Source: Acholeplasma sp.
GTDB taxonomy: Bacteria; Bacillota_I; Bacilli_A; Acholeplasmatales; UBA5453
Length of the DNA: 64,000 nt
Direction of reading: 5' to 3'
NCBI GenBank assembly: GCA_036677365.1
Contig: JAVBWN010000016.1
Coordinates: 32,001 to 96,000, forward strand
The notes under the pieces are model-generated. The model made no database searches, had not been told where the DNA came from, and saw only the letters and a program-made list of their open reading frames with translations. The position numbers and the translations under genes were made by a program. Each line of letters starts with the position of its first letter. The first letter of the stretch is position 1. Of the stretch, positions 24,213 to 61,358 are shown piece by piece.

Positions 24213-24293
24213 AAAACACAATGACATTAAAGTAATTAATCATCGTCTAACTGTATTCATTATAGAAGAACATTTAAGATAGGAAATATAACC

Positions 24294-26409: not shown

Positions 26410-26423
26410 TGGATGGTGACCCG

Positions 26424-27044: not shown

Positions 27045-27065
27045 AAAGAGGTAAAAACAACAACT

Positions 27066-28542: not shown

Positions 28543-28543
28543 T

Positions 28544-32530: not shown

Positions 32531-32531
32531 T

Positions 32532-34668: not shown

Positions 34669-34677
34669 GATATACAT

Positions 34678-35787: not shown

Positions 35788-35791
35788 TCAA

Positions 35792-36919: not shown

Positions 36920-37428
36920 AAAAACTATTTGTACCACTAGCGAGAATTATTGAGATAATTGATAATTATGTCAAGAGATTGATAGGTTTTTCACAAATCT
37001 CAAGAATAAAACACAAAGGATTAAACTGCCATATAGAAAGAAATTGCATAATAAATACGGCAAATGTAATTTTTGGAGACAATATTTTTATCGGCCCTGG
37101 GTGCTTGTTGTTGTCAACTAAAGCCAAAATTATCATTGGAAATAATGTAATGTTTGGTCCGAATGTATCAATTATAACCGGGAATCATAGAATAAATGTA
37201 AAAGGGGTTCCAATGATAAGTGTAACAGAAAAGCAAACAGATGACGATGAGGATGTAGTAATTGAAGATGATGTATGGATTGGTGCTGGAGCCATTGTAT
37301 TAAAAGGTGTTCGAATCGGGACAGGATCTATTGTAGCAGCAGGAAGTGTTGTGACCAAGGATATACCCGCATATCACATTTACATGGGTGTACCAGAAAG
37401 GAAAATTATTGAAAGAAGTTTTCAATAA
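36916..37428 (+). CDS. Hexapeptide-repeat O-acyltransferase
   Basis: [38 protein letters not shown]. Confidence 0.9.
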
Positions 37429-37458
37429 TAAAGTTTTAGGAAAGAAAGTGAAAGGAAA

Positions 37459-42830: not shown

Positions 42831-42847
42831 AGATTCCTCCAAAAATG

Positions 42848-42966
42848 TGACTGAATATGACTGAATTTTACAATTATCGTGACTAATTGTCAAGATAACG
42901 TTCATTTGTTGACTTTAATCCGTCACATTTGTTATAGTTGGGATGAACCTAATGAAACCGTTTCCA
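42848..42966 (+). promoter_or_regulatory. Divergent control region with TGACT repeats, promoter and cre-like site
   Basis: TGACTGAAT twice (42848, 42858), TTGACT (42909) to TGnTATAGT (42930-42938), TGAAACCGTTTCCA (42953-42966). Confidence 0.65.
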
Positions 42967-43010
42967 GCGATAACAACGCGATTATATTTATATTTATGAA
43001 GGATGAAACA

Positions 43011-45696: not shown

Positions 45697-46937
45697 CACA
45701 AAATGAAAAATACAATATAGCGAAATCCATCTATCAAAAATATGGTGTTGATGTCGATCAAGCGATTCAAACACTCAAACAAACACCTATTTCTATACAG
45801 TGTTGGCAAGGGGATGATGTCAAAGGCTTTTATAGTAATGAAGCACTCTCTGGTGGTATTTCAGTAACCGGAAATTACCCATTCCGAGCAAGAACAATTG
45901 AAGAACTTCGAAGCGATTTAGAAGTTGTCTTTCAATTGGTTCCATTCAAACATCGCGTGAATTTACATGCGATTTATCTCGATACTAAGGATAAGATCGA
46001 ACTGGATGAAATCGAACCGAAACACTTTGAATCTTGGGTTAATTGGGCGAAAAAAGAGGGCATTGGATTGGACTTCAATCCAACCCTATTCTCACATCCA
46101 ATGGCAGCTTTAGGATTTACGTTATCATCCAATGATGATCATATCAGAAGCTTTTGGGTAAGACACGTCAAACAATCCAGAAAAGTGGCTCAGTATTTTG
46201 GAGAAGCCTTAGGGATTGAAACGGTATGTAATTTATGGATACCAGATGGTTATAAAGACACCCCATACAACCGACTAGCACCAAGAATTCAACTTCAAAA
46301 ATCGCTAAATGAAATTTATACATCCAAATTGGATCGTGTGGTAGACACCCTTGAATCGAAACTCTTTGGTATTGGGGCGGAATCATATACAACCGGTTCA
46401 CACGAATTTTATATGGGGTATGCGATTAAACACAATCTCGGGTTATGTTTAGATTTGGGGCATTTCCATCCAACAGAACAAGTATCGGATAAACTCTCTG
46501 CCATGTCGTTATACGTGGATCACTTATTACTACATGTATCCAGACCAGTACGCTGGGATTCAGACCACGTGGTTACACTCAGCGATGATTTACTCAGTGT
46601 TACAGAAGCATTGGTTCGAGATGATTTATTAAAGAAAACAGCGATTGGATTAGACTATTTTGACGCTTCAATTAATCGTATTGCAGCGTGGGTGATTGGT
46701 ATCAGAAATACACAAAAAGCGTTGTTAAAAGCCCTATTAGAACCGAAAGAATTGATTGAGAAAATAGAAAAAGCACAAAACTATACCGCTAGATTGGCCT
46801 ACCTAGAAGAGTTAAAAGCATTACCATTCGGGCTGGTTTATGACTACATTTGTGAAGTAGAACATAAACCCGTTGGCATCGATTTCTTAAAAAAAATAGA
46901 AGCTTATGAAGCCAACATGAAAGGCAAACGACCATGA
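45693..46937 (+). CDS. rhaA: L-rhamnose isomerase
   Basis: CWQGDDV, RVNLHAIY, LDFNPT, WIPDG, ESKLFGIG, GHFHPTE, HVSRPVRWDSDH. Confidence 0.97.
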   Translation: MTQNEKYNIAKSIYQKYGVDVDQAIQTLKQTPISIQCWQGDDVKGFYSNEALSGGISVTGNYPFRARTIEELRSDLEVVFQLVPFKHRVNLHAIYLDTKDKIELDEIEPKHFESWVNWAKKEGIGLDFNPTLFSHPMAALGFTLSSNDDHIRSFWVRHVKQSRKVAQYFGEALGIETVCNLWIPDGYKDTPYNRLAPRIQLQKSLNEIYTSKLDRVVDTLESKLFGIGAESYTTGSHEFYMGYAIKHNLGLCLDLGHFHPTEQVSDKLSAMSLYVDHLLLHVSRPVRWDSDHVVTLSDDLLSVTEALVRDDLLKKTAIGLDYFDASINRIAAWVIGIRNTQKALLKALLEPKELIEKIEKAQNYTARLAYLEELKALPFGLVYDYICEVEHKPVGIDFLKKIEAYEANMKGKRP

Positions 46938-47749
46938 TAAAAAACATATTAGAATCGAGATTTATCCAAGAATTTTCCAACGTCATCGATAGAATGTACC
47001 TCTTAGGTTGGGACGAAAGAAACGCCGGGAATGTTTCATACATTCTCGATGAAGCCGAATTATCCGAGTACCTAGACTTATCTAAAATAGGGCGATTATA
47101 CCCGCTTCAAATCAATGCGAAACCGTTGGCAGGTAAATACTTACTTGTCACAGGGTCAGGTAAGTATTTCAAAAATGTCAAAGAACAACCAGAAGCGAAT
47201 GCTTGTATTGTAAAAGTCACACAAGCAGGTGACCATGTCGAAATTCTATGGGGATTAAAACCGACCGAAAGACCGACATCCGAATTATCGACACACCTAG
47301 CTTCACATATTTCTAGACTTGAAGTAGACCCAACGCATAGGGTCATCATCCACACACACGCGACATATTTAAATATGATGAGTGCAATCACTGAACTCGA
47401 TGAAAAAACATTCACCAAAGCATTGTGGGGATTAAATACAGAAAACATCATCATCTTTCCAGAAGGCTTAGGCATCATTCCATGGGAAATTCCAGGGAAC
47501 GGGATCATTGGAAAAAACACAGCAGAAAAATTTAAAACATTCAAAATAGTCTTATGGCCACTCCATGGCGTAGTCGCATCCGGTGACACCCTAGATTCAA
47601 CGTTTGGTTTGGTTGAAACAGTAGAAAAAGCCGCCATGACCTATTTGGTGATTAAACCATTTAATAACCATAAACTCATACCAGATGCAGATTTAGTTAG
47701 ACTTGCGAAAGCTTTTAATGTCAAACCGAACGAGGCATTCATCAAATGA
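46934..47749 (+). CDS. rhaD: Rhamnulose-1-phosphate aldolase
   Basis: GWDERNAGNVS, TGSGKYFKN, PTSELSTH, IHTHAT, WPLHG, ETVEKAA. Confidence 0.95.
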   Translation: MIKNILESRFIQEFSNVIDRMYLLGWDERNAGNVSYILDEAELSEYLDLSKIGRLYPLQINAKPLAGKYLLVTGSGKYFKNVKEQPEANACIVKVTQAGDHVEILWGLKPTERPTSELSTHLASHISRLEVDPTHRVIIHTHATYLNMMSAITELDEKTFTKALWGLNTENIIIFPEGLGIIPWEIPGNGIIGKNTAEKFKTFKIVLWPLHGVVASGDTLDSTFGLVETVEKAAMTYLVIKPFNNHKLIPDADLVRLAKAFNVKPNEAFIK

Positions 47750-48726
47750 AAAAAGTCATCGTTATTATGTTGATAGCACTCGTTATGTTATCCGGATGTA
47801 AGGAAAAAGAAAAACCCATCATCGATGACACTGGCGCAATAGAATTATTAGAAGACCCGACGTTCTCCACTGGATTTCAGTTGTTAGGTATTAGTCCTGT
47901 CGTCGATGGTAGAACCATTCAACGACATCTAGACTATAACGGTGAAGCACTGCCTTCAACCAGAAATGTATGGTATATGGCACAGTGGTGGACCCCACAC
48001 GATGTTACTGATGCAACTTATGCTAAAGTGAGCGGCGTTCACACATACACCACTGAATCGAGAACCTTACATATAAATCCAAGTGACCACGGTTATTTGA
48101 GAATTGATCTAAAAGCATCCAAAGAGTATAGTGAACCAAGACAAAGTGGTCAACCTTGGACACATGCACTCATTGAACAAGATTTCAACGAGTCAGTGGG
48201 TATGCAAGCCTTATCTGCACTCATACTCAAACTTGAAGTCACTGTGAATTCGGTTGAAAACTTAACGGGTTCAGCTTATGATCCATCCAAACACGCAGCA
48301 CAACTCTTATGGTATTTAACGTTAAGAAATGTTGTTCCAGAAGATGCTGATCCAAACGAAGTAGGAACTCGAGGAGACTTCCTATGGTTTGGCATTCCGA
48401 TTTATGATAATCGTTCCGATTTTATAGCACAATCAGCCCATCTCGACCAAGGTGGTCCCGGTACAACCAATAAACTCATTTATTCAATGTCTTCAAGAAA
48501 CTATTTTGATGAAAAGATTCAAATGGGTAAAACCTATCAAATTGAAATTGATGTCTTACCTTACTTACAAGAGGCATTCCTTTACGCGATTCAAAACAAT
48601 GCCCTGGTGAATGCACAATATGAAAACATGCAAATTGGTTATATGAACTTAGGTTGGGAACTCCCAGGAACATTTGATGTATCATCGACTTTTAGAAATA
48701 TATCCATCAAAGCAGTTAAGAAGTAG
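47746..48726 (+). CDS. Lipoprotein of unrecognised family, paralogue A
   Basis: Lipobox LSGC; motifs shared with 48734 and 58731. Confidence 0.8.
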   Translation: MKKVIVIMLIALVMLSGCKEKEKPIIDDTGAIELLEDPTFSTGFQLLGISPVVDGRTIQRHLDYNGEALPSTRNVWYMAQWWTPHDVTDATYAKVSGVHTYTTESRTLHINPSDHGYLRIDLKASKEYSEPRQSGQPWTHALIEQDFNESVGMQALSALILKLEVTVNSVENLTGSAYDPSKHAAQLLWYLTLRNVVPEDADPNEVGTRGDFLWFGIPIYDNRSDFIAQSAHLDQGGPGTTNKLIYSMSSRNYFDEKIQMGKTYQIEIDVLPYLQEAFLYAIQNNALVNAQYENMQIGYMNLGWELPGTFDVSSTFRNISIKAVKK

Positions 48727-48733
48727 GTGTGAT

Positions 48734-49627
48734 ATGAAAACAATCGAATTATTAACAGACACGCATTTTAAAACAGGCTTCCATGTGCTTGGAATCAATC
48801 CGACCATCAATCATCGAAAAATTTACAAATATTTAGATTACAACGGTGAAGCTTATCGAACCAATTGGCCTGTTTGGCAGATGGCTCAATGGTGGACACC
48901 ATTTGATTTATCCGAATCTACATTCAAAAAATCAGAGGATCGTTTTATATATGACACCCCTTCTAGACACATTGAAGTGAATCCAAAAACGGGGTATCTC
49001 AAGATGGATTTATTTGGGTCTAAAGAGTATCCGCTTGGGCCAAGAAAAAGCGGTAGTGAGCCCTGGAGTCACTTACTCATAGAACAAGATTTCAACGAAA
49101 GTGTATCACTAGACTTCTTGAAATCACTCACTTTGAAATTGTCATTCCAGATTGAATCTGTTCAAGATGAAAACCAAGGGTTGTTTAATCCGAATTTACA
49201 CGCAGCCCAATTCTTATGGTATTTCGTCATTCATGACACAGGCATTGAAGGTTCTAAAGGGTATGGAAACTTTAAAGAATTCTTTTGGTTTGGAATACCA
49301 TTGTTTGATAGTCGATACCCATTCATCGAGGAATCGATGCATGTCGACCAAGGCGGCATAGGTACTACTGGTAGACTCATCTATTCAATGTCAAACAGAA
49401 ACTACCTAAAAGAACCCATTCAATTTGGAAAACCATATGACATAGAAATTGACATTTTACCGTTTGTTTTAAAGGCAAAACAGTATGCATTAGATCATGG
49501 CTACTTAAAACGACACGATCAAGCAAACTATCAAATTGGGTATATGAATTTAGGATGGGAATTACCAGGTAGATATGACGTGAAATCGCATATTCAAGGG
49601 ATTTCAGCGTTGGCAGTTTTGAAATGA
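48734..49627 (+). CDS. Signal-less member of same unrecognised family, paralogue B
   Basis: Starts directly at IELL motif, AGGTG RBS, no signal peptide. Confidence 0.8.
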   Translation: MKTIELLTDTHFKTGFHVLGINPTINHRKIYKYLDYNGEAYRTNWPVWQMAQWWTPFDLSESTFKKSEDRFIYDTPSRHIEVNPKTGYLKMDLFGSKEYPLGPRKSGSEPWSHLLIEQDFNESVSLDFLKSLTLKLSFQIESVQDENQGLFNPNLHAAQFLWYFVIHDTGIEGSKGYGNFKEFFWFGIPLFDSRYPFIEESMHVDQGGIGTTGRLIYSMSNRNYLKEPIQFGKPYDIEIDILPFVLKAKQYALDHGYLKRHDQANYQIGYMNLGWELPGRYDVKSHIQGISALAVLK

Positions 49628-49674
49628 ATCGATTCAACAACTGAAAAAGTTGTAAAAAATATATGGAGGGAACC

Positions 49675-52068
49675 ATGAAAAAATTAGTATCATTCGGTTT
49701 AATCGTTGTTTTAGCGTTTATGTTGATGGCAAAGCAAGCTAAAGCAGCTGTATTACCAGAAAATCCACCAGTCATTGGTGTGGAATCAACCACAACGGAT
49801 TTCTATTCACATTGGCAACCAGGTAGTTTTGGTGCAACCCGTATTGGCGACCAAGGCGTCGCAATGGCATTAACATCTGGATTCGGTTTAAGAGCGGGAT
49901 TTAGAACCCCATTTAACGCAACCGATTTTGAGATGCAACTGGATTTAACTTATATGGACCCAGGTACAGCTACGATTACTTTCTTTGGACCACAAGGGTC
50001 ATACATTAGCGGTAATGGTGCAGTACTTTCCATTGAATTCGTTAAACATACGACTGTTGCGAACAAATACTTAGTCGCTGTTCAAATTGGGTCTGGTACA
50101 CACCACGTATCACTACCTGAATTCGTATTAGTTGAACAAGGTGACTGGGAAGATTCGAACTGGAAAGGTTACCAATTGGTAGCACCAGAAGACGTGATTA
50201 CAGTATCGATCAAAGAAGTTGGTACTAACGTGAACGTGACCATCAATGGTCAAGTCTTTGTGGTTGCTTCTTCCACGTTCTATTCAAACTTCGCTGATAA
50301 GACAAACTCATATTTCTTAGTTGGTGCTTTGAATATGGACGGAACCGTTCAAACGTTAGTTGCGAATTATGTTGTCGATGCAAGCAGAAGAGCTTATTAT
50401 GCTGAAGATGGCGCATTCGATACATTCAAGACAAATTTAGTTGCTTTAGAAACCGCGTTACTTGAGGACTTATCAGTCATCACGAATGTTCAAGCAGCTC
50501 AAGCAATCAATGCTAACCTAGACATTGATACCTTAAAATCATATGACAAGAATTTTTTCAGATCAAGATTTGATGCGGCTCAAAGCACACTCTCTCAAGC
50601 CATTACTGAACTCGGTGGGGATATCGTTCTAGACGAACTAGAAGCATCCATTGTCAACCTTGAAGGTAAAGTCAACCTCATTTCAAACTACACAACAGCA
50701 AATCAAGCAATCGCACAACTAACGATTGCCCAAGATAAAGAAGTAGCCGTGGATGCTTCTGAATTCACCCCTGAACAAATAACAAGACTTGGTCAATTGT
50801 CAGACCGCATTGTAGCTGCTGACACATTAATCATTTCCAAAGTCCATGATTTAGTCTCAGCACAAATCGATGCATTTGAAGCAGCCGTATTGGATTTATC
50901 CAACATTTCAAAAGTCAATACAGCTTTAGATGCTAGAGCAGCTGTATCCAAAAATTTGATCAGTTTACTAGAAGAAGCAGACCAAACTGAGTTCAATAAT
51001 GCTTTTGATGCTGCTGAAACCACTTTGATGGCTGCAACTCAAACATTGGACGGTTGGATCGTTGGTGACAACACCTATGTCATTGAAAACAACAATACAT
51101 TTGAAGCAACATTCTTAGGTTCTGGTTTAGGTGAAGGTGGGAACGGCCTATTCTATGAACTAGAACAACTCGATGTTAGAAATTTCAGAATGACTTTAGA
51201 CATCTCTGCAATTACAGTTGAAGCTGGTGGTTGGATTAGCTTCGGTATTATGGAAAATCCAGAAATCTTCTCAACCGCAGATGATTCTTCAGTACAAAAT
51301 AACAAAGGATTATTCTTCTTGATTATTCCAGATGGTGCAAATCAAGCCAGAGTTGAAATTTACATGTTAAGTTTATACTCAAACCGTTTCTTCGATGCGA
51401 AACGGACAGCAACACTTAATATCAATTTAAGCAATGAAATCGTTGTGGATTTCTCCACTGAAATGCGATCTGTATCCGGTGTTACCGATGAGTATCTAAG
51501 AATCTCTATTGGTGGGCAAGTTATGACTGGCGATACCATTACAACCAGATCACTTAAAACATCATTGGCTACAGGTAAGGGTTATCTATACTTAGCAGCA
51601 ACCGGTGGCACTTATGCTTCAAAAAATACCATCAGCGTATCTTTCATCAATGGTAAAAATCCACTTTCCGATAGTTTAGTCGTAGACTATGCACCAGCAC
51701 CTCATGTTTTAACCACTTCATTATCGTATGAACTTGAAACACTCACAGATAAAAACATCGAATTCTATAACAGAGATTTATCCTATGTGGTTAAAGTGAA
51801 TGATGTCATCGTTGATGCTTCTAATTACACCTATGCCAATAACATTCTTAAACTTAAATCCAGTTTCTTAGAAACACTTGAAGCTGGTGAACACACTGTG
51901 AAAATTGAAACTGCTGGTGGAGTTGCAACCGTAGCGTTGACAGTGACCGCTGCACCACAAGCGCCACAAGCAGCCAACAATGTAGTTTGGATTTCAATTG
52001 GTATTGGTGGCGGGGTTATTGCTTTAGCTGTAGCCGCGTTCTTCGTCTTTAAGAAAAAAGGTATCTAA
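49675..52068 (+). CDS. Membrane-anchored surface protein with two beta-rich domains, helical spacer and X2-like domain
   Basis: Signal peptide ending AKA; NYTYANNILKLKSSFLETLEAGEHTVKIET X2-like; C-terminal TM followed by KKKG. Confidence 0.7.
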   Translation: MKKLVSFGLIVVLAFMLMAKQAKAAVLPENPPVIGVESTTTDFYSHWQPGSFGATRIGDQGVAMALTSGFGLRAGFRTPFNATDFEMQLDLTYMDPGTATITFFGPQGSYISGNGAVLSIEFVKHTTVANKYLVAVQIGSGTHHVSLPEFVLVEQGDWEDSNWKGYQLVAPEDVITVSIKEVGTNVNVTINGQVFVVASSTFYSNFADKTNSYFLVGALNMDGTVQTLVANYVVDASRRAYYAEDGAFDTFKTNLVALETALLEDLSVITNVQAAQAINANLDIDTLKSYDKNFFRSRFDAAQSTLSQAITELGGDIVLDELEASIVNLEGKVNLISNYTTANQAIAQLTIAQDKEVAVDASEFTPEQITRLGQLSDRIVAADTLIISKVHDLVSAQIDAFEAAVLDLSNISKVNTALDARAAVSKNLISLLEEADQTEFNNAFDAAETTLMAATQTLDGWIVGDNTYVIENNNTFEATFLGSGLGEGGNGLFYELEQLDVRNFRMTLDISAITVEAGGWISFGIMENPEIFSTADDSSVQNNKGLFFLIIPDGANQARVEIYMLSLYSNRFFDAKRTATLNINLSNEIVVDFSTEMRSVSGVTDEYLRISIGGQVMTGDTITTRSLKTSLATGKGYLYLAATGGTYASKNTISVSFINGKNPLSDSLVVDYAPAPHVLTTSLSYELETLTDKNIEFYNRDLSYVVKVNDVIVDASNYTYANNILKLKSSFLETLEAGEHTVKIETAGGVATVALTVTAAPQAPQAANNVVWISIGIGGGVIALAVAAFFVFKKKGI

Positions 52069-53208
52069 ATGAACAAAAGAGTAAACTACAAGCACATCAC
52101 AATGCTTTTATGCTTACTCTTTACCGGTTTATTTTTGAGTGCATGTCAACAAGAACAAGGCTATCAGTATGGTGAAAAACAAATGTTGGTAAAATTATGG
52201 GAAGACAAAACGATCTATAATGAGACGGTCGTTCTCGAAGATAATGGTTCAGAAATATCAGGCAAATTGTTATTTGCACCTACTGAAATCATTGCCGTTA
52301 GGGATTATACACTGGATAAAGTATACGATCCCTCTGAATATGAAATCAGAGGAAACATCATTATGAGAACAGATACATCCACGATGCCATTTTTAACAAC
52401 AGAACAATTGGCTGGAAAAAATTTGCCTGAAGCATATGCATTTAGCACGTATCAAGCAAAAGCCCCTGGCACACAAATCATCTTTACTGAAGGTATTGGG
52501 ATCGTCATGCATCAAATCGCGGTTACATATAAACACGCATCTACATGGGCAGGGATTACACCTGCCCATCAAGTAGATGCATTGAAGCGATTTAATCAAA
52601 AAATTAGCGCAGGTGAAGCAGTAAACGTCGTACTTTATGGGGATTCTATATCCACAGGTGCAAACTCATCGGGTGTATTGGGCATCAAACCTTACCAAGA
52701 CGATTTCGGCACAATGTTTACCAATTATTTATCAAGTAAATACCATACCACCGTAAATCTCATAAATACGTCCAAAGGTGGGATGTTATCTGCTTGGGGT
52801 AAAGACAATGTAGATGATTTAGTGAATGATTATGATCCGGATTTGGTCATCATTGGTTTTGGTATGAATGATGGTTCATTGGGTGTTTCTCCTTTAACTT
52901 ATAAAGAGAATATTGAATTTATGATACGTTCCATTCAATCAAGAAACCCGGAAGCAGACATCATTGTCATGCATACCATATATGCGAATCCATTATCGAT
53001 TCAAAATCAAGGTCAAGCGTCTTATTTACCAGAATTAACAGATTTACAATCTGCCTATGGGGTTGCATTACTTGACATGGGCAGCATCACTGAAGAATTA
53101 TATAAAACCAAAAAGGGTGTGGATATTCTAGCGAATAACATCAACCACCCTAGTGATTTTTTAGTTAGAATCTATGCAGCAGGACTCATTCAGGTGTTGG
53201 AGGGATAA
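52069..53208 (+). CDS. SGNH/GDSL esterase lipoprotein
   Basis: Lipobox LSAC; YGDSIS, SKGG, FGMND, NHP. Confidence 0.88.
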   Translation: MNKRVNYKHITMLLCLLFTGLFLSACQQEQGYQYGEKQMLVKLWEDKTIYNETVVLEDNGSEISGKLLFAPTEIIAVRDYTLDKVYDPSEYEIRGNIIMRTDTSTMPFLTTEQLAGKNLPEAYAFSTYQAKAPGTQIIFTEGIGIVMHQIAVTYKHASTWAGITPAHQVDALKRFNQKISAGEAVNVVLYGDSISTGANSSGVLGIKPYQDDFGTMFTNYLSSKYHTTVNLINTSKGGMLSAWGKDNVDDLVNDYDPDLVIIGFGMNDGSLGVSPLTYKENIEFMIRSIQSRNPEADIIVMHTIYANPLSIQNQGQASYLPELTDLQSAYGVALLDMGSITEELYKTKKGVDILANNINHPSDFLVRIYAAGLIQVLEG

Positions 53209-53209
53209 C

Positions 53210-55489
53210 ATGTTAACCTATAGCGCAGATTACAAGAGTTTAATAGAAGCTTCTTATGAAATGAAAGAAGAAGCGAGAAATGCCGCGCTATTTACCACAG
53301 GGAATGGGTATTTTGGTATTAGAGGATCATTCGAAGAATTCGGTTCTTTGAATGTTCAAGGCGCGTACATTCGTGGATTAATCGATGAAATCATCGAAAT
53401 CCCTCAAATTTATATCGATAACGTATACATGCGCAAATATTATATAAACGAGTTGGAAGCGAAACAGTTTGAAACACAAGACTCGTGCATTAATTTTGCA
53501 GATATTTTACTCTTAAGATTTAAAATAGGTGATCACGTTTTCTACCCATGGGAAGGTAAAATCGAATCATGGGTCAGATACATCGATACAAAAGATGGGT
53601 CTTTGGTGAGGACATTGGTTTGGAATGACTTAGAAGGTCATTTAACCAAATTATCATTTAAGCGATTTGCTTCATTTAAAGACAACCATCACTATTTCAT
53701 TCAGGCGACATTGGAAAAACTCAATCATGACTTAGATGTGGTGATTGACAGTGGTTTAGATACATTCATCAAAACCAATGGTCAAAAAAAATCCAAATTG
53801 AAATCATTTCATTATGACTTAGGACAATTTTTGTTCGGTGTTGGTGATAAATATCATTTTGAGACTGCCATTTCGATACACAATGAGGTAGATAAAGTTT
53901 CATCTACTTGGCAATATGACAATGGGTGTCATTACGAAAGAATTTACCCCAAAGCAAATAGAACCATTCAAATTACAAAATCAATCGTTGTTCATATGAC
54001 ACAAGATGTAATCAATAAAGACATTCTAGCGAAAATCAACCAAGAAGCCATGTTGGCAGTGAAGAACGAAACGTATGAAAACCATTATAAGAAGCACTTG
54101 TCCGTTTATGAACAAGCATTCAATTTAATGAATGTCGAACTAGAACACCCATCCGATGATGCATTATTTAAGTATGCAAACTATCAAACCTTAATTTCAC
54201 TCGACCGCTATGATCAAGTCCATAGCGTCAGTGCGAAAAACCTGACAGGGGAAAAATATAACCAATTTGTTTGGTGGGATGCAGAAATATTCCAGTTTCC
54301 TGTGTATTTAATGACACACCCTGAAGCCGCGAAGTCGATCCTAATGTACCGCTATAATCGTTTAGAAGAAGCGATTAAAAACGCTAAAAAAGAAGGCATC
54401 GATGGGGCACGATTTGCGTTTTGCTCGTCCGTTTTAGGCGATGAAAAGGTCTGGGCTTACGCCAGACACCCATTCATGCAAATCCACATCAATTCAGACA
54501 TCGCCTACGCTATTTTATCCTATTATAGAGTGACAAAAGATTTAGATTTTATGGTGAATTATGGGGTAGAGATGCTTTTAGAAATATCCAAGTACTTTAT
54601 CCAAAGAGTCCGTTATAATGAAGCTCTAGATCTCTATGATTTAAATAACGTCACCGGGACCGATGAACACCACCCATACATCAATAACAATGCCTACACC
54701 AACTTCATGGTTTCTTATGTGTTAACAGAAACAGTGGAATGGTTTAAAACAAGAGGATTAAAAGAAAAGTATGGCGTGACTAAATCACTACTTGAAAAAA
54801 TCAAACATGTTGGTCACAAGATTAAAAAGAGTATGACCAAAGATGGCTATATCCCTCAATTTGATGGGTATTTCAATTTAAAAGAAACGTTAGAAGTCAC
54901 TGGTAACGGGTCAGCGAAGAGTTTCCAAATGAAACAATCGGGCCTATACCACGAATCACAAATCATCAAACAACCCGATGTCATTATGTTATTTACCTAT
55001 ATTGACATTCCACTTGGTCCAGTATCTTATGAGCGCAACTGGCAGTACTATGAAAGAATGTGTGAAGCGTCCTCTTCACTCACCTATCCAGTTCACGCCA
55101 TCGCGGCGATTGACCATCAAGAATATGACAAATTTTATGACTATTGGTATAAGAGCGTTGCGATCGATATCATAGATCATCACAAAGAAGCACATTTAGG
55201 CTTGCATGCTGCATGTATGGCAGGTGGTTGGTATGCTGTATTTAGGGGTTTGTTTGGCTTCAAACCAGCTTTAGACTACTTAGAACTTAATCCAACGTAC
55301 TTTGAACGTTGGGGTAGCGTAAAAATGGCGTTTATGTATCAAGGTAAACACATTAAAGCAGAATTGACAAAGCAAAGTGTGACGATTATTTGTAAAGAAG
55401 CTCTCGTTTTGGTATATCAACAACAAATTTATGAACACAATAAAAAAACCATCATACCATTGTTAGGTATGAGAAAGGATCATTTATGA
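53210..55489 (+). CDS. GH65 family glycoside phosphorylase/hydrolase
   Basis: LFTTGNGYFGIRG, WWDAEIF, QIHINSDIAY, GTDEHH, NNAYTN, IIKQPDV, SSLT. Confidence 0.92.
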   Translation: MLTYSADYKSLIEASYEMKEEARNAALFTTGNGYFGIRGSFEEFGSLNVQGAYIRGLIDEIIEIPQIYIDNVYMRKYYINELEAKQFETQDSCINFADILLLRFKIGDHVFYPWEGKIESWVRYIDTKDGSLVRTLVWNDLEGHLTKLSFKRFASFKDNHHYFIQATLEKLNHDLDVVIDSGLDTFIKTNGQKKSKLKSFHYDLGQFLFGVGDKYHFETAISIHNEVDKVSSTWQYDNGCHYERIYPKANRTIQITKSIVVHMTQDVINKDILAKINQEAMLAVKNETYENHYKKHLSVYEQAFNLMNVELEHPSDDALFKYANYQTLISLDRYDQVHSVSAKNLTGEKYNQFVWWDAEIFQFPVYLMTHPEAAKSILMYRYNRLEEAIKNAKKEGIDGARFAFCSSVLGDEKVWAYARHPFMQIHINSDIAYAILSYYRVTKDLDFMVNYGVEMLLEISKYFIQRVRYNEALDLYDLNNVTGTDEHHPYINNNAYTNFMVSYVLTETVEWFKTRGLKEKYGVTKSLLEKIKHVGHKIKKSMTKDGYIPQFDGYFNLKETLEVTGNGSAKSFQMKQSGLYHESQIIKQPDVIMLFTYIDIPLGPVSYERNWQYYERMCEASSSLTYPVHAIAAIDHQEYDKFYDYWYKSVAIDIIDHHKEAHLGLHAACMAGGWYAVFRGLFGFKPALDYLELNPTYFERWGSVKMAFMYQGKHIKAELTKQSVTIICKEALVLVYQQQIYEHNKKTIIPLLGMRKDHL

Positions 55490-56973
55490 AAAAAGTTTTG
55501 ACCCTATTGGCTATCATCCTATCGGTTGTCATCGTTGCTGCTTGTAACGGTAATGGCGGTTTAGGCGAAATAAAAACCATCGTTATTGATGGTGGAGGTG
55601 ATATTGGTAATTTTAACTCGACACCATTGATGACCCCTAGTGAAGCTAATCCATTCCCATATAACACACTAGAAGTATTAGCAAGAGAGTGGGAAAAGCT
55701 CAATCCGAAATATAAAATTGAAATCAATAAAACATCATCTAATGGCGATAGAGCCATTTTGGTCCCACAACTTAACAACAAAACCGCCCCAGATATTACT
55801 TATCAGAACGGGACTGTTGTCAATATGGACTTAGGAAAAGACTATTATGTCGTTTTAAATGAGTATTTGAATAAACCAAACAAGTATGTATCAGGCAATA
55901 AGGCATGGAAAGATTTATACATACCTGAAGAACTAGCACAAAATATGGCTTCAGATGGCAATTATTACACCATAACACTGGAAAAAGTACCTGTAGGTAT
56001 CATGTACAATAAAGCAATACTCGCAGAAGCAGGTATCACAAAAATCCCATCAACCTATGCTGAATTTTTACAGGCATTGAGTGATATAAAGACAAAAACA
56101 ACCAAAGAAGCTTATACAACGACTTACACTTGGTATGATATCGTCCTTGAATCCACAATGTTCTCTGACATATTACCACTCGCCGATGTCTTAACTGTCA
56201 ACGGGAAAGTCGATACAGAAGAATTTGTCAGAGCTTATGAAAAAGGTATTTGGAATCCAACATTGAATGCCCTTGGATCAGGTGCTACGCTCGTAGATAA
56301 CCGTTATTATGAGTATATTAAAGTAACTAAAATGAAAACAGAATTCTATCCACAAAATTGGCAAAGTTATGATGCGCATACCAATTTCGTCAATGGTAAC
56401 CTCGCGATGGTTGAAGTAACCGGTAGAGAAATTCGTAAACTTTCCATCAACAAAAACATCAATTTTGAATGGGGCGTTATGCCGTATCCAGATTTGACGA
56501 CAGCAACAACACCTTACGCTTATGCACCATCCATTCGTGGCGTAGCCGGGTTGGCGACACCATGGTTTATTACCAATGCTGCTGTAGAAAAAGGCACAGT
56601 AGAAGGTGCAGTTGACTTTTTAATGTTCCTAACAGCACCACAAAATAACAATCGTTTGATTGGTGACCTAAAAGGTGGCATTCCACTCAATCCCAATTCA
56701 GAAACAGCAATAGCCCCTTATTTGCAAGAATTATTGGAGATTTACACCCAAGATAAAGCAACCGTATCCACAGGCAATCGCGTTTATTGGGGATCAGTAA
56801 ACTCATGGGCAATGTTAGGTTATGCCTATAATACAGCATTTATCAAGAGTTTACAGGACATCGATAATGGTGTCAAAACCGAAGAAGAGGTTGCCAAATC
56901 ATTGGCACAAACCATACGTAATACGATACAAGCATTAAAGATTGAAAATCAATACGACGAGTCGAAATGGTGA
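55486..56973 (+). CDS. Sugar ABC transporter substrate-binding lipoprotein
   Basis: Lipobox VAAC, APDI, MYNKAILAEAGI..IPSTYAEF, FEWGVMPYP. Confidence 0.88.
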   Translation: MKKVLTLLAIILSVVIVAACNGNGGLGEIKTIVIDGGGDIGNFNSTPLMTPSEANPFPYNTLEVLAREWEKLNPKYKIEINKTSSNGDRAILVPQLNNKTAPDITYQNGTVVNMDLGKDYYVVLNEYLNKPNKYVSGNKAWKDLYIPEELAQNMASDGNYYTITLEKVPVGIMYNKAILAEAGITKIPSTYAEFLQALSDIKTKTTKEAYTTTYTWYDIVLESTMFSDILPLADVLTVNGKVDTEEFVRAYEKGIWNPTLNALGSGATLVDNRYYEYIKVTKMKTEFYPQNWQSYDAHTNFVNGNLAMVEVTGREIRKLSINKNINFEWGVMPYPDLTTATTPYAYAPSIRGVAGLATPWFITNAAVEKGTVEGAVDFLMFLTAPQNNNRLIGDLKGGIPLNPNSETAIAPYLQELLEIYTQDKATVSTGNRVYWGSVNSWAMLGYAYNTAFIKSLQDIDNGVKTEEEVAKSLAQTIRNTIQALKIENQYDESKW

Positions 56974-57872
56974 AGATTATGAAGAAAAATCAGCAAAAAA
57001 CAAAATTTCAATATAAAGCATTTATTTGGCTTTCACCGGCCATTTTGTTATTGCTGATTTTCTCATATTATCCACCGATTCGCACATTGATGTTTTCATT
57101 TACGGACGCTAACGGGGCAGGCATTGGAAAATTTGTGTTTTTAGATAATTTCATTGAACTATTTTCATCTCAGGTTTTTTATAGAAGCTTAATCAACGTC
57201 ATTATATTCATCTCGGTTGGCATGTTTGTCGGTAATATTGCAACCATCTTATTGGCTGAATTACTGTATAACTTGAAAAGTCGATTCGCCAGTGCATTTT
57301 ATCGGTTTTTATTCATCATACCTGTCCTTGTGCCTGCTGTTGTCATCATTTTAATCTGGCAATACATCGTTTTTGCGGGTGGAGACTCAGGGATTGCAAA
57401 TAGAATTATGGGATTTTTTGGCGGAGATAACCAAAATTGGTATTTTGATCCAAAACTTGCACCTGTGGCTATTTTATTAACAGCATTTCCGTGGGTAGCA
57501 GGGACTTCATTTTTGATATATTTAGCCGGCTTACAAAATATTTCAAGTGGAGTAATTGAAGCGTCCAAACTAGATGGTGCGAATATGATTCAAAGAATTA
57601 TTCGAATTGATCTACCCTTACTCAAAGGACAAATCAAGTATTTTGTGGTTATGGGCATCATCGGTGGTTTACAAAATATCAACCTACAAGTATTGGTGAC
57701 AGGCAGTGGACCCGGTACATCTAACGCCACCAACGTACCAGCGTTCATGCTTTTCGAAGAAGCATTTACATATGACCGTTATGGTTATGCATCTGCGATT
57801 GGAATAGTCATATTTTTAATGACCCTTGCTTTTACTATTTTTAACATGAAAAAGCTGAAAGGAAATGACTGA
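56967..57872 (+). CDS. Carbohydrate ABC permease
   Basis: IYLAGLQNIS..IEASKLDGA EAA loop, YGYASAIG. Confidence 0.92.
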   Translation: MVKIMKKNQQKTKFQYKAFIWLSPAILLLLIFSYYPPIRTLMFSFTDANGAGIGKFVFLDNFIELFSSQVFYRSLINVIIFISVGMFVGNIATILLAELLYNLKSRFASAFYRFLFIIPVLVPAVVIILIWQYIVFAGGDSGIANRIMGFFGGDNQNWYFDPKLAPVAILLTAFPWVAGTSFLIYLAGLQNISSGVIEASKLDGANMIQRIIRIDLPLLKGQIKYFVVMGIIGGLQNINLQVLVTGSGPGTSNATNVPAFMLFEEAFTYDRYGYASAIGIVIFLMTLAFTIFNMKKLKGND

Positions 57873-58719
57873 TATGAGATTACTCAAATTTTTACGTAAA
57901 AACTATGTTGAAGTCATCATTACAACGATAGTCATGGTGCTGCTATTGCTATCCTTTTATCCGTTATACATGTTGGTCATTAAAAGTTTTAAGACCATTT
58001 CAGACGACCAATCCAACCCTTTCGGTCTACCGGTTGTATGGAGTTTAGAAAACTATGAATATGCGTGGATTGTTATCAAACCATACTTATTTAACTCACT
58101 GTTTGTAACGACAATCCAAACCCTCGGTATCGTTACAGTGGGGTCATTTACTGCCTTCGCTTTCGTCCGATTTAATTTTCCATATAAAAACACAATTTTC
58201 TATATGATCATTGCATTACTCATGATGCCGGGTATCGTCACTTTGACAAGCCAATATGAACTCGTTAATAAATTAGGACTGGTAAATTCCCATTGGGGTG
58301 TTATCTTACCAGCAATTTCGGGGTCTATTCCATTCGCCACTTTTCTCTTAAGAACATCTTTTTCAGGGGTATCCACAGAGTTATTAGATGCCGCAACCAT
58401 CGATGGGGCTACTGATTTTCAGGTGTATTACAATGTGATGTTACCAATTTCTAAACCCATCATTTGGACTTTAGTAATTACCTCTTTTATCGGGGGATGG
58501 AACGATTATTTATGGCCATCCTTGGTTTTATTAGATGAAAAACTCCACACCTTACCCATCGCCCTAGTCAATTTCACCACCTCTTATTACGGAATGACTG
58601 GCGGTTATGGGGCACCTTTCGCAGCTTATGTTATTAGTAGTTTACCGCTACTCATTGTGTTCTTAATGGCTTCAAAACAATTTATTGCCGGTCTTACCAG
58701 TGGCAGTATCAAGATGTAA
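57865..58719 (+). CDS. Carbohydrate ABC permease
   Basis: ELLDAATIDGA, WNDYLWP, KQFIAGLTSGSIK. Confidence 0.92.
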   Translation: MTDMRLLKFLRKNYVEVIITTIVMVLLLLSFYPLYMLVIKSFKTISDDQSNPFGLPVVWSLENYEYAWIVIKPYLFNSLFVTTIQTLGIVTVGSFTAFAFVRFNFPYKNTIFYMIIALLMMPGIVTLTSQYELVNKLGLVNSHWGVILPAISGSIPFATFLLRTSFSGVSTELLDAATIDGATDFQVYYNVMLPISKPIIWTLVITSFIGGWNDYLWPSLVLLDEKLHTLPIALVNFTTSYYGMTGGYGAPFAAYVISSLPLLIVFLMASKQFIAGLTSGSIKM

Positions 58720-58730
58720 AGGAGAAACAA

Positions 58731-59705
58731 ATGAAAAAGATTCTATTGGTTCTAAGTTTTTTAGGGATATTTTCTATACTTACCGCATGTGATAACAAAA
58801 AACCTACACCAGAAAGTAAAGTCATTGAACTTATTCAAGATAATCTATTCAAGAATGGTTTCGTCATCTCTCCCGCAGATAACGAACCTCAACCAGACAA
58901 TAGATACCCACTTGATTACAACTTAACTTATGGCACACCCGATGGACAAATCGCTTGGTTATTGGGTCAAGCAGGTAATCGATTTGGACTAGCAGATGAT
59001 TATGCATTGTTGGGAAAAGAAGTTGCATACTCAAACGGATATTATACGATTGAAGATACATCCAAACAATTGATTATCAATCCGGAAACGGGTGAAATCA
59101 CGTTTGTCTTGAATACATCCAAAGAATATTTAAAGCCTCGTGAGGCGAAAGAAGCATGGCCACATTTACTCATTCAACAAGGGTTATCACAAAACATTTC
59201 GGTGAGTGATGTTGAAAGTATTGTTTTGAGTATGTCCATTCAACTCAATAGTCTCATCAATCATATGTCGAATGAAGAATACAATCCATCCTTACATACC
59301 GCTCAATTTTTGATGTATATCGTTGTTCGTAGCAATGCAGCAGCGGATGCGGGTGAATATATGTGGTTCGGAATTCCCTTTTTTGATGCGCGATACCCAC
59401 TCATGCAAGAAAATGGGATGATTGATGCAGGGACCTCAGGCAATACTGGGAAATTCATTTATCAGATGCCACAAATTGATTTTATGCCAAATGGATTACA
59501 AGTCGGTGTCAACAACCAGATCAATGTGGATTTAATTCCTTATTTTGCGAGAGCATTAATGCTTGCAAAAGAAAAAGGCGCATTATTGAACACCACGGTT
59601 GACGATTTATATTTAACCAACATGAATATTGGCTATGAAATTCCGGGTACTTATGATGTGTCGATTACAATTCAAAATTTCTCATTGAAAGCGACTAAAA
59701 AATAA
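58731..59705 (+). CDS. Lipoprotein of unrecognised family, paralogue C
   Basis: Lipobox LTAC; WPHLLIQQ, HTAQFLMY, WFGIPFFDARY, MNIGYEIPGTYDV. Confidence 0.8.
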   Translation: MKKILLVLSFLGIFSILTACDNKKPTPESKVIELIQDNLFKNGFVISPADNEPQPDNRYPLDYNLTYGTPDGQIAWLLGQAGNRFGLADDYALLGKEVAYSNGYYTIEDTSKQLIINPETGEITFVLNTSKEYLKPREAKEAWPHLLIQQGLSQNISVSDVESIVLSMSIQLNSLINHMSNEEYNPSLHTAQFLMYIVVRSNAAADAGEYMWFGIPFFDARYPLMQENGMIDAGTSGNTGKFIYQMPQIDFMPNGLQVGVNNQINVDLIPYFARALMLAKEKGALLNTTVDDLYLTNMNIGYEIPGTYDVSITIQNFSLKATKK

Positions 59706-59706: not shown

Positions 59707-60351
59707 ATGATAAAGGGCATCATATTCGATTTAGACGGGGTCATCGTATCCACCGATGACCTTCATTTTATGGCGTGGAAAAAAATAGCATCCCAAGAAG
59801 GTATTGTATTTGATCGAACCATCAATCACCAATTACGAGGTGTATCTCGAATGGAATCTCTAGAGATTATCCTATCGAAATCCAATAAAAAATATACAAT
59901 GGATGAAAAATTAGCACTAGCAAAAATTAAGAATGATTACTATGTTACATTACTGGATCAATTATCTCAAAAAGACATTCTTCCAGGCGTCACACATCTT
60001 TTGGACTGGTTAAAGCAAACCCAAATCAAAACAGCCATTGGATCATCAAGTAAAAATGCAAAAACGATACTGAGAAAAATCGGATTATATGAGATGTTTG
60101 ATCATATCACCGATGGTAATGATATCTTACACAGCAAACCCAATCCAGAAGTGTTTTTAAAAGCCGCGCATGCGCTTGGTTTAGAGAATAGTCTTTGTGC
60201 TGTGGTGGAAGACGCTGAAGCAGGTATAGAGGCCGCTAAAGCAGCGGGTATGTATGCTTTCGGCATAGGACCAGCCAGTACCTATCATAAAACAGACTGT
60301 CCATTAACATTCATCGACGAAATTAAACAAACCCTAAAAATACAAATGTAG
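59707..60351 (+). CDS. pgmB: Beta-phosphoglucomutase
   Basis: IFDLDGVIVSTD, HFMAW, LRGVSRMESL, SSSKNA, KPNPEVFL, VEDAEAG. Confidence 0.93.
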   Translation: MIKGIIFDLDGVIVSTDDLHFMAWKKIASQEGIVFDRTINHQLRGVSRMESLEIILSKSNKKYTMDEKLALAKIKNDYYVTLLDQLSQKDILPGVTHLLDWLKQTQIKTAIGSSSKNAKTILRKIGLYEMFDHITDGNDILHSKPNPEVFLKAAHALGLENSLCAVVEDAEAGIEAAKAAGMYAFGIGPASTYHKTDCPLTFIDEIKQTLKIQM

Positions 60352-60385
60352 AAGATTGTCAGCAATTGATAATCTTTTTTGTTTT
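60350..60385 (+). terminator. Intrinsic terminator ending glycan operon
   Basis: aagattgtca...tgataatctt plus T run. Confidence 0.7.
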
Positions 60386-60417
60386 CTGGGTATATAATAA
60401 CCTCAGGTGGTGATACT

Positions 60418-61332
60418 ATGAAACTCATCGATTATCTTATGGGAAGTGACTCATCCATTCAATCCCTCGCGTCTAAACATCTATTGAATAAAGAAATCAA
60501 AGTCAGAAACAGCGAAATCATTGAATCCTATTTAAGTCACTTTGATCATAAAACCTATCAATTTGGTGAAGGTATATATTCACCAAAATGGATATCCACC
60601 TTCTATACCTTAAGAGACCTTGCACAATTCAACATCGATGATCAGAACCCAATATTTCAAAAGTGTATCGATACACTCTTGAGTCATCTGTGGAACAAAG
60701 ACGCCTTCATCGAAGACGATATCTGTGTCGTCGCGATGCTTGTCAGTCTGTGTACGTATGCAAGAAGAGACACAGGTATCATTGATTCGATTATGGATTA
60801 TTTGATACAAACCCATCAAACTGAAGATGGTGGTTGGAACTGTGCTTGTACCAGGCATGATACCAAGAAGAGTTCAATTAATACCACGCTATCCGTATTA
60901 GAAGCTTTTAGGGATTATGAATATTATGGTTACACCAATAAGCTACAAACCATAAAACCATTGAATCAATCAGGTATTGAATATCTATTAAGGAAGAAAC
61001 TCTACTTAAGAGAAACCACTCAAACACCGATATTCAAATACATCCAAGATATTCATTTCCCCATCCATTGGCAATACGATATTTATCGTGCATTAGACTA
61101 TTTCGCATCCATCAAATACCCATATGACCCAAGGATGGAACAAGCCTTAAACATCTTCAAACAATCCTTTAAGAATGGGTTGTTACCAAGAGGGAAAACA
61201 TTCTCAGGTAAAACACACTTTAGATTAATAACGGAGGATGTGGTTAAAATCAACACCATCCGAGGTTTAAGCGTATTAAAAGTGTATGATCAAAATATGT
61301 ATCAAGCACTTATGCAAACAACTATCGACTAA
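60418..61332 (+). CDS. Hypothetical protein, prenyltransferase/terpene-cyclase-like helical fold
   Basis: YSPKWISTFYTL, QTEDGGWNC, FPIHWQYDIYRALDY. Confidence 0.6.
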   Translation: MKLIDYLMGSDSSIQSLASKHLLNKEIKVRNSEIIESYLSHFDHKTYQFGEGIYSPKWISTFYTLRDLAQFNIDDQNPIFQKCIDTLLSHLWNKDAFIEDDICVVAMLVSLCTYARRDTGIIDSIMDYLIQTHQTEDGGWNCACTRHDTKKSSINTTLSVLEAFRDYEYYGYTNKLQTIKPLNQSGIEYLLRKKLYLRETTQTPIFKYIQDIHFPIHWQYDIYRALDYFASIKYPYDPRMEQALNIFKQSFKNGLLPRGKTFSGKTHFRLITEDVVKINTIRGLSVLKVYDQNMYQALMQTTID

Positions 61333-61358
61333 CTCATCCGAACTGGATGAGTTTTTAT
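61331..61358 (+). terminator. Intrinsic terminator
   Basis: aactcatcc-gaact-ggatgagtt plus T run. Confidence 0.8.

Follow-up and report, generated by a model that had tools for sequence, protein, structure and literature searches.

The window analysed here is a 64,000-nucleotide stretch of DNA from Acholeplasma sp. (GenBank assembly GCA_036677365.1, contig JAVBWN010000016.1, positions 32,001 to 96,000; coordinates below are counted from its first letter), derived from a genome of 1.97 Mb that is 99.86% complete. Within an operon that contains genes for L-rhamnose (Rha) catabolism, it carries three related genes, named A, B and C, which a preliminary description of the sequence had put forward as candidate new glycan-cleaving enzymes:

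47746-48726, + strand: paralogue A, 326 aa, lipoprotein at the cell exterior (lipobox LSGC); no Pfam match; match to the family profile at E 3e-122
48734-49627, + strand: paralogue B, 297 aa, no signal peptide, cytoplasmic; AlphaFold predicted local distance difference test (pLDDT) 95.5, nearest fold glycoside hydrolase family 12 (GH12), Z 13.4
58731-59705, + strand: paralogue C, 324 aa, lipoprotein (lipobox LTAC), the most divergent copy; ribosome-binding site AAGGAG

That description reported three open reading frames (ORFs) sharing ordered motifs, and its coordinates are correct, all three lying on the + strand. In pairwise BLASTP, A is 50% identical to B over 298 residues (E 2e-103) and 32% identical to C over 338 residues (E 1e-58), and the alignment of the three proteins contains 74 invariant columns and all motifs listed (IEL..D..F..GF, SKEY..PR, W.H.LI.Q, H.AQ.L.Y, WFGIP..D.R, D.G..G.T...IY.M and MN.G(W/Y)E.PG..DV). 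A, B and C are true paralogues, their similarity being far beyond chance, and a profile search of the whole genome retrieved exactly these three copies. Lipobox-type signals are present at the N-termini of A (MKKVIVIMLIALVMLSGC) and C (MKKILLVLSFLGIFSILTAC). For B, the start codon is ATG 48734, preceded by an AGGTG Shine-Dalgarno-like site 5 nt before and by the stop of A 7 nt before, and AAGGAG lies 7 nt upstream of the start of C. The division between outside and inside proposed earlier is borne out, A and C being lipoproteins and B lacking a signal, and the same pattern recurs in other Bacillota.

The remaining genes of the operon, its divergent regulator and its flanking signals are as follows:

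42069-42905, - strand: DeoR-family regulator, divergent from the operon (Pfam DeoRC, 7e-44, and HTH_DeoR); homologues in 11 of 77 related loci
42909-42938: promoter-like TTGACT-18-TATAGT
42879-44255, + strand: Gfo/Idh/MocA oxidoreductase, first gene of the operon (Pfam GFO_IDH_MocA N- and C-terminal domains)
44245-45696, + strand: FGGY kinase, rhamnulokinase-like (RhaB; Pfam FGGY_N and FGGY_C), the assignment being backed by the neighbours RhaA and RhaD
45693-46937, + strand: L-rhamnose isomerase RhaA (Pfam RhaA, E 1e-186, 621 bits)
46934-47749, + strand: class II aldolase, rhamnulose-1-phosphate aldolase-like (RhaD; Pfam Aldolase_II, E 1e-25)
49663-52068, + strand: 801-aa surface protein with a signal, two concanavalin-like beta-sandwich domains, an Ig-like domain and a C-terminal membrane anchor
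52069-53208, + strand: SGNH/GDSL esterase lipoprotein, putative glycan deacetylase (lipobox LSAC; Pfam Lipase_GDSL_2, E 3e-16)
53174-55489, + strand: GH65 enzyme, likely start ATG 53210 (Pfam Glyco_hydro_65m, E 2e-77, and 65N, E 5e-36)
55486-56973, + strand: ABC sugar-binding lipoprotein (lipobox VAAC; weak match to NCBIfam TIGR03850, E 1e-6); present in 20 of 77 loci
56967-57872 and 57865-58719, + strand: two ABC permeases (Pfam BPD_transp_1, E 2e-10 and 4e-16)
59707-60351, + strand: beta-phosphoglucomutase (NCBIfam TIGR01990 bPGM, 253 bits versus a cut-off of 189)
60379-61332, + strand: 317-aa protein of no known family, last gene (no Pfam or NCBIfam match)
61331-61353: terminator-like hairpin of 10 pairs, then TTTAT

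The operon probably ends at this hairpin, and the true start of its first gene probably lies downstream of GTG 42879; the oxidoreductase encoded by the latter has weak NCBIfam matches to inositol and glycoside 3-dehydrogenases, none of which reaches the cut-off. Five proteins of the operon lack an assigned family, namely A, B, C, the 801-aa protein and the 317-aa protein. The 801-aa protein represents a second unnamed family, with homologues in 17 of the 77 loci and a sub-threshold match to CBM_X2. In its AlphaFold model, based on 16 homologues (pLDDT 82.6), a helical stalk of about 220 residues separates the two sandwiches. Foldseek related this model to lectin-like domains, adhesins and S-layer proteins and, more weakly, to GH16 and polysaccharide lyase family 7 (PL7), and no Glu is invariant across the 16 homologues. 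Judging from the model, this protein is likely to bind or hold glycans, with some chance of a catalytic role. Its candidature as a tailspike-like beta-helix endorhamnosidase was dropped, as the model consists of two lectin-like sandwiches on a helical stalk. The 317-aa protein has no homologue in the 61 long related loci; it contains a Q..DGGW-type motif, which presumably recalls the alpha/alpha repeats of terpene cyclases or prenyltransferases.

An unnamed family across bacterial phyla

Pfam and NCBIfam contain no family that matches A, B or C, the single match being to the signal peptide of A, and at an E-value of 0.01 or better Pfam yielded nothing for any of the three, PF01670 included. 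Similarly, a profile built from A, B and C found no match among PDB sequences, even at E 10. A word-indexed protein search retrieved 134 relatives, called, where given a name, only 'hypothetical protein', the nearest named organisms being Paracholeplasma manati (81%) and Acholeplasma. The family is thus unnamed, as the preliminary description had supposed. In the ESM Atlas, its neighbours are unnamed clusters throughout; the nearest named cluster, DUF5648, was discarded as a relative, its score of 0.80 being at chance level. A literature search, in which most subscription journals fell outside coverage, found no paper on the family and, among the papers listed, none that mentions an endo-rhamnanase.

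The family is real and widespread, occurring in seven phyla or more. A profile of 71 family sequences (A2), searched against 1.84 billion representatives, matched 1156 clusters at E 1e-3 or lower and 636 at E 1e-30 or lower, and 315 stretches encoding a relative were found in contigs from one genome per species. Hosts include Acholeplasmataceae, Bacilli, Clostridia, Paenibacillaceae, Sphingobacteriaceae, Chitinophagaceae, Verrucomicrobiota, Planctomycetota, Armatimonadota, Cloacimonadota and Hydrogenedentota. As to a phage or plasmid origin, tblastn of B returned no match among 50,697 phage records or 72,556 plasmid records.

Single-domain proteins make up about 120 of the best 150 representatives. 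According to a rough census of 261 N-termini, 162 are signal- or lipobox-like, 50 have no extension (B among these), 28 consist of long N-terminal domains and 21 are unclear. A domain-fusion scan of 30 multi-domain representatives revealed eight that are fused to other catalytic folds (GH16, SGNH/GDSL in the member P0136, three alpha/beta-hydrolases or BD-FAE esterases, BNR_2, BNR_4 and a metallo-beta-lactamase fold), three with dockerins, three with type IX secretion (T9SS) sorting domains, two with Big_2 and one with a Listeria-Bacteroides repeat; 13 have no further Pfam domain, two of these being tandem duplications of the family domain. In some members, the family domain is the sole globular domain alongside a dockerin or a T9SS signal. 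As far as domain content tells, this pattern fits a secreted carbohydrate-active module, catalytic or binding alike.

A quick maximum-likelihood tree of 66 copies, with support from the Shimodaira-Hasegawa-like approximate likelihood ratio test only, places C in a clade (support 99) in which the copies lie after the permease genes of the respective loci and 12 out of 14 were scored as having a signal. A and B belong to another clade (support 97), which, in Acholeplasmataceae as in Bacilli, splits into sub-clades of exported and of signal-less copies, indicating that the division between outside and inside is old and has been maintained. These separate exported and cytoplasmic clades, together with the prevalence of single-domain members, the 50 members without an N-terminal extension and the members that stand as sole globular domain beside a dockerin or T9SS signal, suggest that the family consists of enzymes rather than of accessory modules.

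A GH12-like jelly roll with its own conserved residues

The AlphaFold model of B, computed with A2 as input (mean pLDDT 95.5; predicted template modelling score 0.92), is all-beta, with 18 strands and one long helix (residues 242-254) before the last two strands. Foldseek against the PDB gave GH12 cellulases for all of its top matches (3amh_B, E 2.9e-9), and a VIA search of 48,161 chains, which is independent of Foldseek, also ranked GH12 first (Z 13.2, 13.1 and 12.2; 194-207 residues; root-mean-square deviation 3.6-3.9 A). In a second structural search, the first 43 rows were all GH12 (Z 11.2-13.4), the best match having about 205 residues aligned at Z 13.4. The structure comparison that the preliminary description had recommended therefore shows its GH12-like jelly roll to be correct at the level of the fold.

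GH12, a clan GH-C family of endo-beta-1,4-glucanases and xyloglucanases (e.g., Cel12A of T. maritima, 3amh; EGPf of P. furiosus, 3vgi; XG12 of B. licheniformis, 2jem), shares with the new family a two-sheet beta-jelly roll with a helix before the last two strands, the superposition covering 185-207 out of 218-270 residues at 3.4-4.0 A (Z 11.2-13.4). The invariant Glu of the family, in a G-x-E turn of the penultimate strand, most likely sits where GH12 has its acid/base, and the family resembles GH12 in being secreted, single-domain and often found within glycan-degrading loci or with dockerins. In contrast, the family is about 40-80 residues longer, displays no sequence or profile similarity to GH12, and possesses an invariant set of its own (D9, W48, W111, H113, D192, R194 and D205). 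Its genomic partners indicate rhamnose and alpha-glucoside glycans, not beta-glucans. For comparison at the sequence level, 20 GH12 genes were taken from Paenibacillaceae genomes (one confirmed against 2jem, E 1e-87), GH12 genes being absent from 400 genomes of the source phylum and present in 31 of 301 genomes in the family of a Paenibacillus genome. The nucleophile motif of this set, D-E-L-M-V-W, has no recognisable conserved counterpart in the new family, and hhalign of the 71-sequence family alignment against the 20 sequences returned probabilities of 0.7%, 0.03% (global) and 0.46% (local). A divergent membership of GH12 was dropped on the basis of these values below 1% and of the missing PF01670 match. 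GH11 xylanases, also of clan GH-C, share the jelly-roll architecture (Z 9.9-10.8; 173-189 residues aligned) but match less well than GH12, have no sequence similarity to the family and occur in another genomic context.

Conservation was scored in 260 of 267 family sequences, seven having been dropped for low coverage or duplication. E276, W48 and G274 are present in all 260, D205 and W111 in 259, D9, D192, R194 and G279 in 258, L115 in 255, H113 and R104 in 251, Y99 in 248 and Q159 in 243, so that D9, D192, D205 and R194 are each at least 99% conserved; H156, Q118 and N272 are further strongly conserved residues. Most of the residues previously listed as invariant hold at this scale, except for the Glu of LIEQ (E117; 200 of 260) and the Asp or Glu before WFGIP (position 182; 153 of 260).

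E276 is located 21 residues from the C-terminus, in the turn M-N-L-G-W-E of the penultimate strand, after the sole long helix. In 2jem, the acid/base Glu (F-G-T-E) is found 18 residues before the last aligned residue, which interpolates to about model residue 277, and the sole better-scoring stretch of the weak hhalign alignment pairs FGTEI of GH12 with LGWEL of the family, at low confidence. Based on these interpolated ranges, E276 most likely corresponds to the acid/base of GH12, and the Glu of the C-terminal G(W/Y)E, to which attention had been drawn beforehand, keeps its place as a catalytic candidate. The GH12 nucleophile is residue 134 in T. maritima Cel12A, as given in PDB titles. The alignment of model residues 46-297 with residues 18-256 of 3vhn_B (198 residues aligned) places the equivalent of this residue between model residues 121 and 216, where D192 and D205 are the only conserved acids. 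Therefore, the active centre, if there is one, would not be that of GH12. E117 was rejected as a GH12-type nucleophile, being conserved in 200 sequences only and lying outside this range, as was position 182, given its acid in just 153 sequences. In a catalytic centre of the family's own, Glu276 may be the general acid and Asp192 or Asp205 the second carboxylate, in a sugar cleft that would be lined by Arg194, His113, Gln159, Asn272, Trp48, Trp111 and Tyr99.

The same conserved positions also bear on elimination instead of hydrolysis. A jelly-roll polysaccharide lyase of the PL7, PL18 or PL20 kind, acting by beta-elimination beside a uronic acid in an acidic rhamnose glycan, is quite improbable. 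Jelly-roll lyases use sets of Arg, Gln, His and Tyr, which the strongly conserved R194, R104, H113, H156, Q118, Q159, N272 and Y99 of the family resemble, and PL7 (2cws, 1vav, 3zpy) and PL20 (2zzj) structures have the general fold in common with it (Z 8.0-8.3). Moreover, sulfatases beside the family in four loci hint at anionic substrates in some lineages, and the genome contains two GH88/GH105-type genes. However, the structural score is clearly higher for GH12 (Z 13 versus 8), and both GH88/GH105-type genes lie outside the operon, on other contigs (C25 and C12). In addition, the conserved neighbourhood of the family lacks uronate-processing genes, with no GH88, GH105 or KduI/KduD-type gene among 143 neighbour proteins scanned against Pfam, and its conserved partners (GH65, beta-phosphoglucomutase and rhaBAD) handle neutral sugars only. 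Hydrolysis would be the preferred reaction.

In a non-catalytic role, the proteins would be GH12-type scaffolds that have lost the nucleophile and that capture or escort rhamnose-glycans, like the surface lipoproteins of polysaccharide utilisation loci or inactive lectin-like glycosidases. None of the conserved acids can be assigned to the position of the GH12 nucleophile, the multi-domain members include the eight that are appended to other catalytic domains, and the VIA search also matched carbohydrate-binding modules (CBMs; 4d0q, Z 10.8; CBM16, Z 9.0; CBM4, Z 8.8). A and C are surface lipoproteins encoded in the same operon as an ABC binding protein, and D9, D192 and D205 could equally be calcium ligands. 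Yet B and the other members among the 50 of 261 without an export signal would then be cytoplasmic lectins with no obvious role. CBMs are normally appended to a catalytic domain and measure about 100-200 residues, whereas the family domain, with about 290, is double the length of the CBMs that matched and has its best and longest alignments among GH12 and GH11 enzymes. Furthermore, E276 is present in 260 of 260 sequences at the acid/base position, and without the family the operon would have no candidate for cutting a polymer except other proteins of no known family. Such a binding role is accordingly considered rather unlikely.

Genomic partners and a proposed route for rhamnose-containing glycans

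By sequence, the GH65 enzyme of the operon is of the Glc-alpha1,3-L-Rha (Glc, glucose) phosphorylase type, its closest characterised relative being Cphy_1019. Over 93% of its length, it shares 44% identity with P0370, the named enzyme from L. phytofermentans (688 bits), versus 241 bits for the kojibiose phosphorylase 3wiq and 179 bits for the maltose phosphorylase 1h54, and a beta-phosphoglucomutase is encoded in the same operon. Table 1 of PMC11442529 and Table 1 of PMC8537180 list the L. phytofermentans phosphorylase as the single enzyme characterised for this specificity, and it is the sole characterised component of its system; the relevant passages of PMC11442529, PMC8950772, PMC3899277 and PMC8537180 name neither an upstream enzyme nor a natural polymer. 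Its substrate is Glc-alpha1,3-Rha with a free reducing rhamnose, so that a rhamnosidic bond must be cut by some enzyme.

GH78 and GH106 exo-alpha-L-rhamnosidases perform this class of reaction, cleavage of alpha-L-rhamnosidic bonds, but neither GH78 (PF17389) nor GH106 (PF17132) has a match in the 99.86%-complete genome. Phage tailspike endorhamnosidases (P22, Sf6) cleave such bonds as well. The folds of both groups, (alpha/alpha)6 barrels for GH78 and GH106 and beta-helices for tailspikes, are unlike that of the family, and exo-rhamnosidases and phage tailspikes are the only enzymes known to attack rhamnan-type polymers. The argument for a gap in the pathway, already made in the preliminary description, is strengthened by the GH65 subtype, the absence of GH78 and GH106, and the co-occurrence of the family with GH65 by genome. 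For the unaccounted-for step, the cutting of the parent polysaccharide, A, B and C are good candidates.

The family itself occurs as 116 copies in 74 loci, often two to four per locus in Bacillota. When the 899 ORFs encoded in the 77 loci were clustered without bias, and labelled through Pfam matches of 143 neighbour proteins (96 + 47), the commonest neighbours proved to be the ABC permeases (24 and 20 loci), the SGNH esterase, which is the commonest enzymatic neighbour (20), the binding protein (20), GH65 (18) and the 801-aa protein (17), followed by DeoR (11), RhaB-like (8), RhaD (8), a GH78-like 807-aa protein (7; Paenibacillus, Cohnella, Pedobacter and Chitinophagaceae), RhaA (6), beta-phosphoglucomutase (5), SusC/SusD (5), GH106-like (4; Clostridia and other Bacillota), CE2-like (4) and sulfatase (4). 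Of these loci, 61 measure at least 8 kb, and 29 of the 61 have a rhamnose-specific gene or GH65 within 10 kb.

The profile search for co-occurrence with rha and GH65 genes, as advised at the outset, located rha genes near the family in 12 loci. With GH65 enzymes of the phosphorylase type (GRP-type) defined as scoring 600 bits or more, about 400 sampled genomes of the phylum contained the family in six and GRP-type GH65 in five, all five of the latter carrying the family; one family-positive genome (97% complete) lacks it. Within the source genus, three of six genomes have both the family and GH65 and three have neither. Among cultured species, Paracholeplasma vituli carries the operon, and P. 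manati has relatives of B and of the GH65 enzyme. As these genomes are kin, the co-occurrence represents perhaps two or three independent events rather than five.

Some neighbourhoods depart from this arrangement. Two Pedobacter loci (L045:6433-12017 and L061) have the order SusC, SusD, family copy, GH78-like, family copy, SGNH, without GH65; the GH78-like protein is the 807-aa one, with a weak Bac_rhamnosid6H match (E 4e-19), and the SGNH protein is homologous to that of the operon, so that the two loci would represent the Bacteroidota counterpart of the system. In a set of loci from Pedobacter and other Bacteroidota and in one Verrucomicrobiota locus, the family adjoins a xylose-isomerase-like TIM barrel with DUF7133/HEAT/cytochrome c (L031, L046 and L070) or a 3-keto-disaccharide hydrolase with Gfo/Idh/MocA (L076), gene sets that by analogy recall oxidative (3-keto) glycoside cleavage. 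In a Clostridia locus with the family and GH65 (L026:17754-20696), a beta-phosphoglucomutase-type HAD domain is fused to GH95 in one 980-aa ORF.

This diversity leaves room for enzymes of another specificity, be it endo-glycanases for another heteroglycan linkage, transglycosylases or partners in an oxidative 3-keto route, the link with rhamnose then being due to other genes. Outside Bacillota, neighbours are mixed (GH43, GH15, GH38, GH13, GH89, GH123, GH172 (DUF2961) and sulfatases), the four loci with 3-keto-type gene sets find an echo in the Gfo/Idh/MocA oxidoreductase that opens the operon, and the GH78-like or GH106-like neighbours, where present, could themselves be the rhamnosidases. 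However, no further candidate for rhamnosidic cleavage can be recognised in the source genome, and the presence of the family follows that of the Glc-Rha phosphorylase from one genome to the next. Furthermore, Gfo/Idh/MocA is found in just four of the 61 long loci, and three to four paralogues per locus fit the stepwise depolymerisation of one polymer. Another specificity is therefore regarded as unlikely, though with a chance that is far from negligible.

The interpretation favoured here, with a probability of about 50%, is that A, B and C represent a new family of glycan-cleaving enzymes that would act on rhamnose-containing glycans both outside and inside the cell, by means of a clan GH-C-type fold and a catalytic set of its own. 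In a first step, the 801-aa lectin-like protein would hold the polymer outside the wall-less cell, where the SGNH lipoprotein would remove its acetyl groups and the lipoproteins A and C would cut its rhamnose-containing backbone into oligosaccharides. Secondly, the latter would be imported by the ABC system. Thirdly, B would trim them in the cytoplasm to Glc-alpha1,3-Rha and possibly free Rha. Fourthly, GH65 would phosphorolyse Glc-alpha1,3-Rha into beta-Glc1P and L-rhamnose, and beta-phosphoglucomutase together with RhaA, RhaB and RhaD would channel both products into glycolysis.

Several observations weigh against this interpretation. With hhalign probabilities of 0.03-0.7%, kinship with GH12 is confined to the fold, and the aligned ranges and the conservation counts lean towards the GH12 nucleophile having no recognisable conserved equivalent; loss of the nucleophile is also typical of lectin-like derivatives of glycosidases. 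Eight of the 30 multi-domain members are joined to other catalytic domains, as CBMs often are. A rhamnose-linked gene or GH65 is absent within 10 kb in 32 of the 61 long loci, which belong mostly to Verrucomicrobiota, Planctomycetota and some Pedobacter and in which the family gene often stands alone, and the RhaB-like matches in Bacilli loci are just 30-33% identical. Finally, the depolymerase could be another protein of no known family, such as the 801-aa protein here or the proteins of about 800 aa in Clostridia. Overall, the preliminary interpretation is partly supported. It stands as regards the fold, the unnamed status, the Glu of G(W/Y)E, the division between outside and inside and the gap in the pathway; by sequence the family is not a member of GH12, the GH12 nucleophile is not recognisably conserved, those 32 loci show no rhamnose link, and catalysis, endo action and rhamnan as substrate are inferences.

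If the family is catalytic, it would be a new family of carbohydrate-active enzymes (CAZymes) with at least 1156 sequence clusters in Bacillota (Acholeplasmataceae included), Bacteroidota, Verrucomicrobiota, Planctomycetota, Armatimonadota, Cloacimonadota and Hydrogenedentota, whose members are blank in current annotation. If the favoured interpretation is true, the source of substrate for the sole known Glc-alpha1,3-L-Rha phosphorylase would be explained, a first handle would be gained on how bacteria, gut species included, break down rhamnan-type polysaccharides, and the enzymes might become tools to type or trim the wall polysaccharides of streptococci, enterococci and lactococci. Rhamnose-glucose polysaccharides (RGP) of Gram-positive walls consist of a 1,2/1,3-linked rhamnan backbone with glucose side chains and include RGP, glucorhamnan and clostrhamnan types, as described in passages of PMC6601261. 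One may speculate that such a wall polysaccharide is the natural polymer for animal-associated Bacillota members. A bolder and decidedly tentative proposal makes A, B and C the founding members of a new GH family and the first cellular endo-alpha-L-rhamnanases, in which Glu276 would operate with Asp192 or Asp205, the GH12 nucleophile position having been lost, on acetylated rhamnose-glucose polysaccharides of Gram-positive walls. Were these proteins endo-rhamnanases, the long-orphan Glc-alpha1,3-Rha phosphorylase would receive its natural substrate, and a wall-less Paracholeplasma, together with Bacilli and Clostridia of the gut, would consume wall polymers of the organisms around them.

In four Clostridia loci, the family copies and GH65 flank a protein of about 800 aa that has no Pfam match (L023:10959-13292, L025:10951-13326, L027:8916-11318 and L069:10943-13462), and other large Pfam-less proteins are encoded at L037:10906-13716, L055:15796-18435, L057:14314-17838 and L059:9354-12191. 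All these loci are rich in uncharacterised candidate CAZymes.

Directly upstream of the operon, the window contains a surface-polysaccharide biosynthesis cluster (26322-41067; 27-31% GC (guanine plus cytosine)) with an initiating sugar transferase, GT2 and GT4 glycosyltransferases, a Wzy-like polymerase, an FnlA-type dehydratase and epimerases, a UDP-GlcNAc 2-epimerase, an acetyltransferase and a pyruvyl transferase; the cluster showed no rml genes. It is preceded by a low-GC island (18498-26217; 28-31% versus about 37%) coding for an FRG-domain protein, a DUF6119 protein, a helix-turn-helix and M78 (ImmA/IrrE-like) protein and two tandem tyrosine integrases, which looks like an integrated mobile or defence element.

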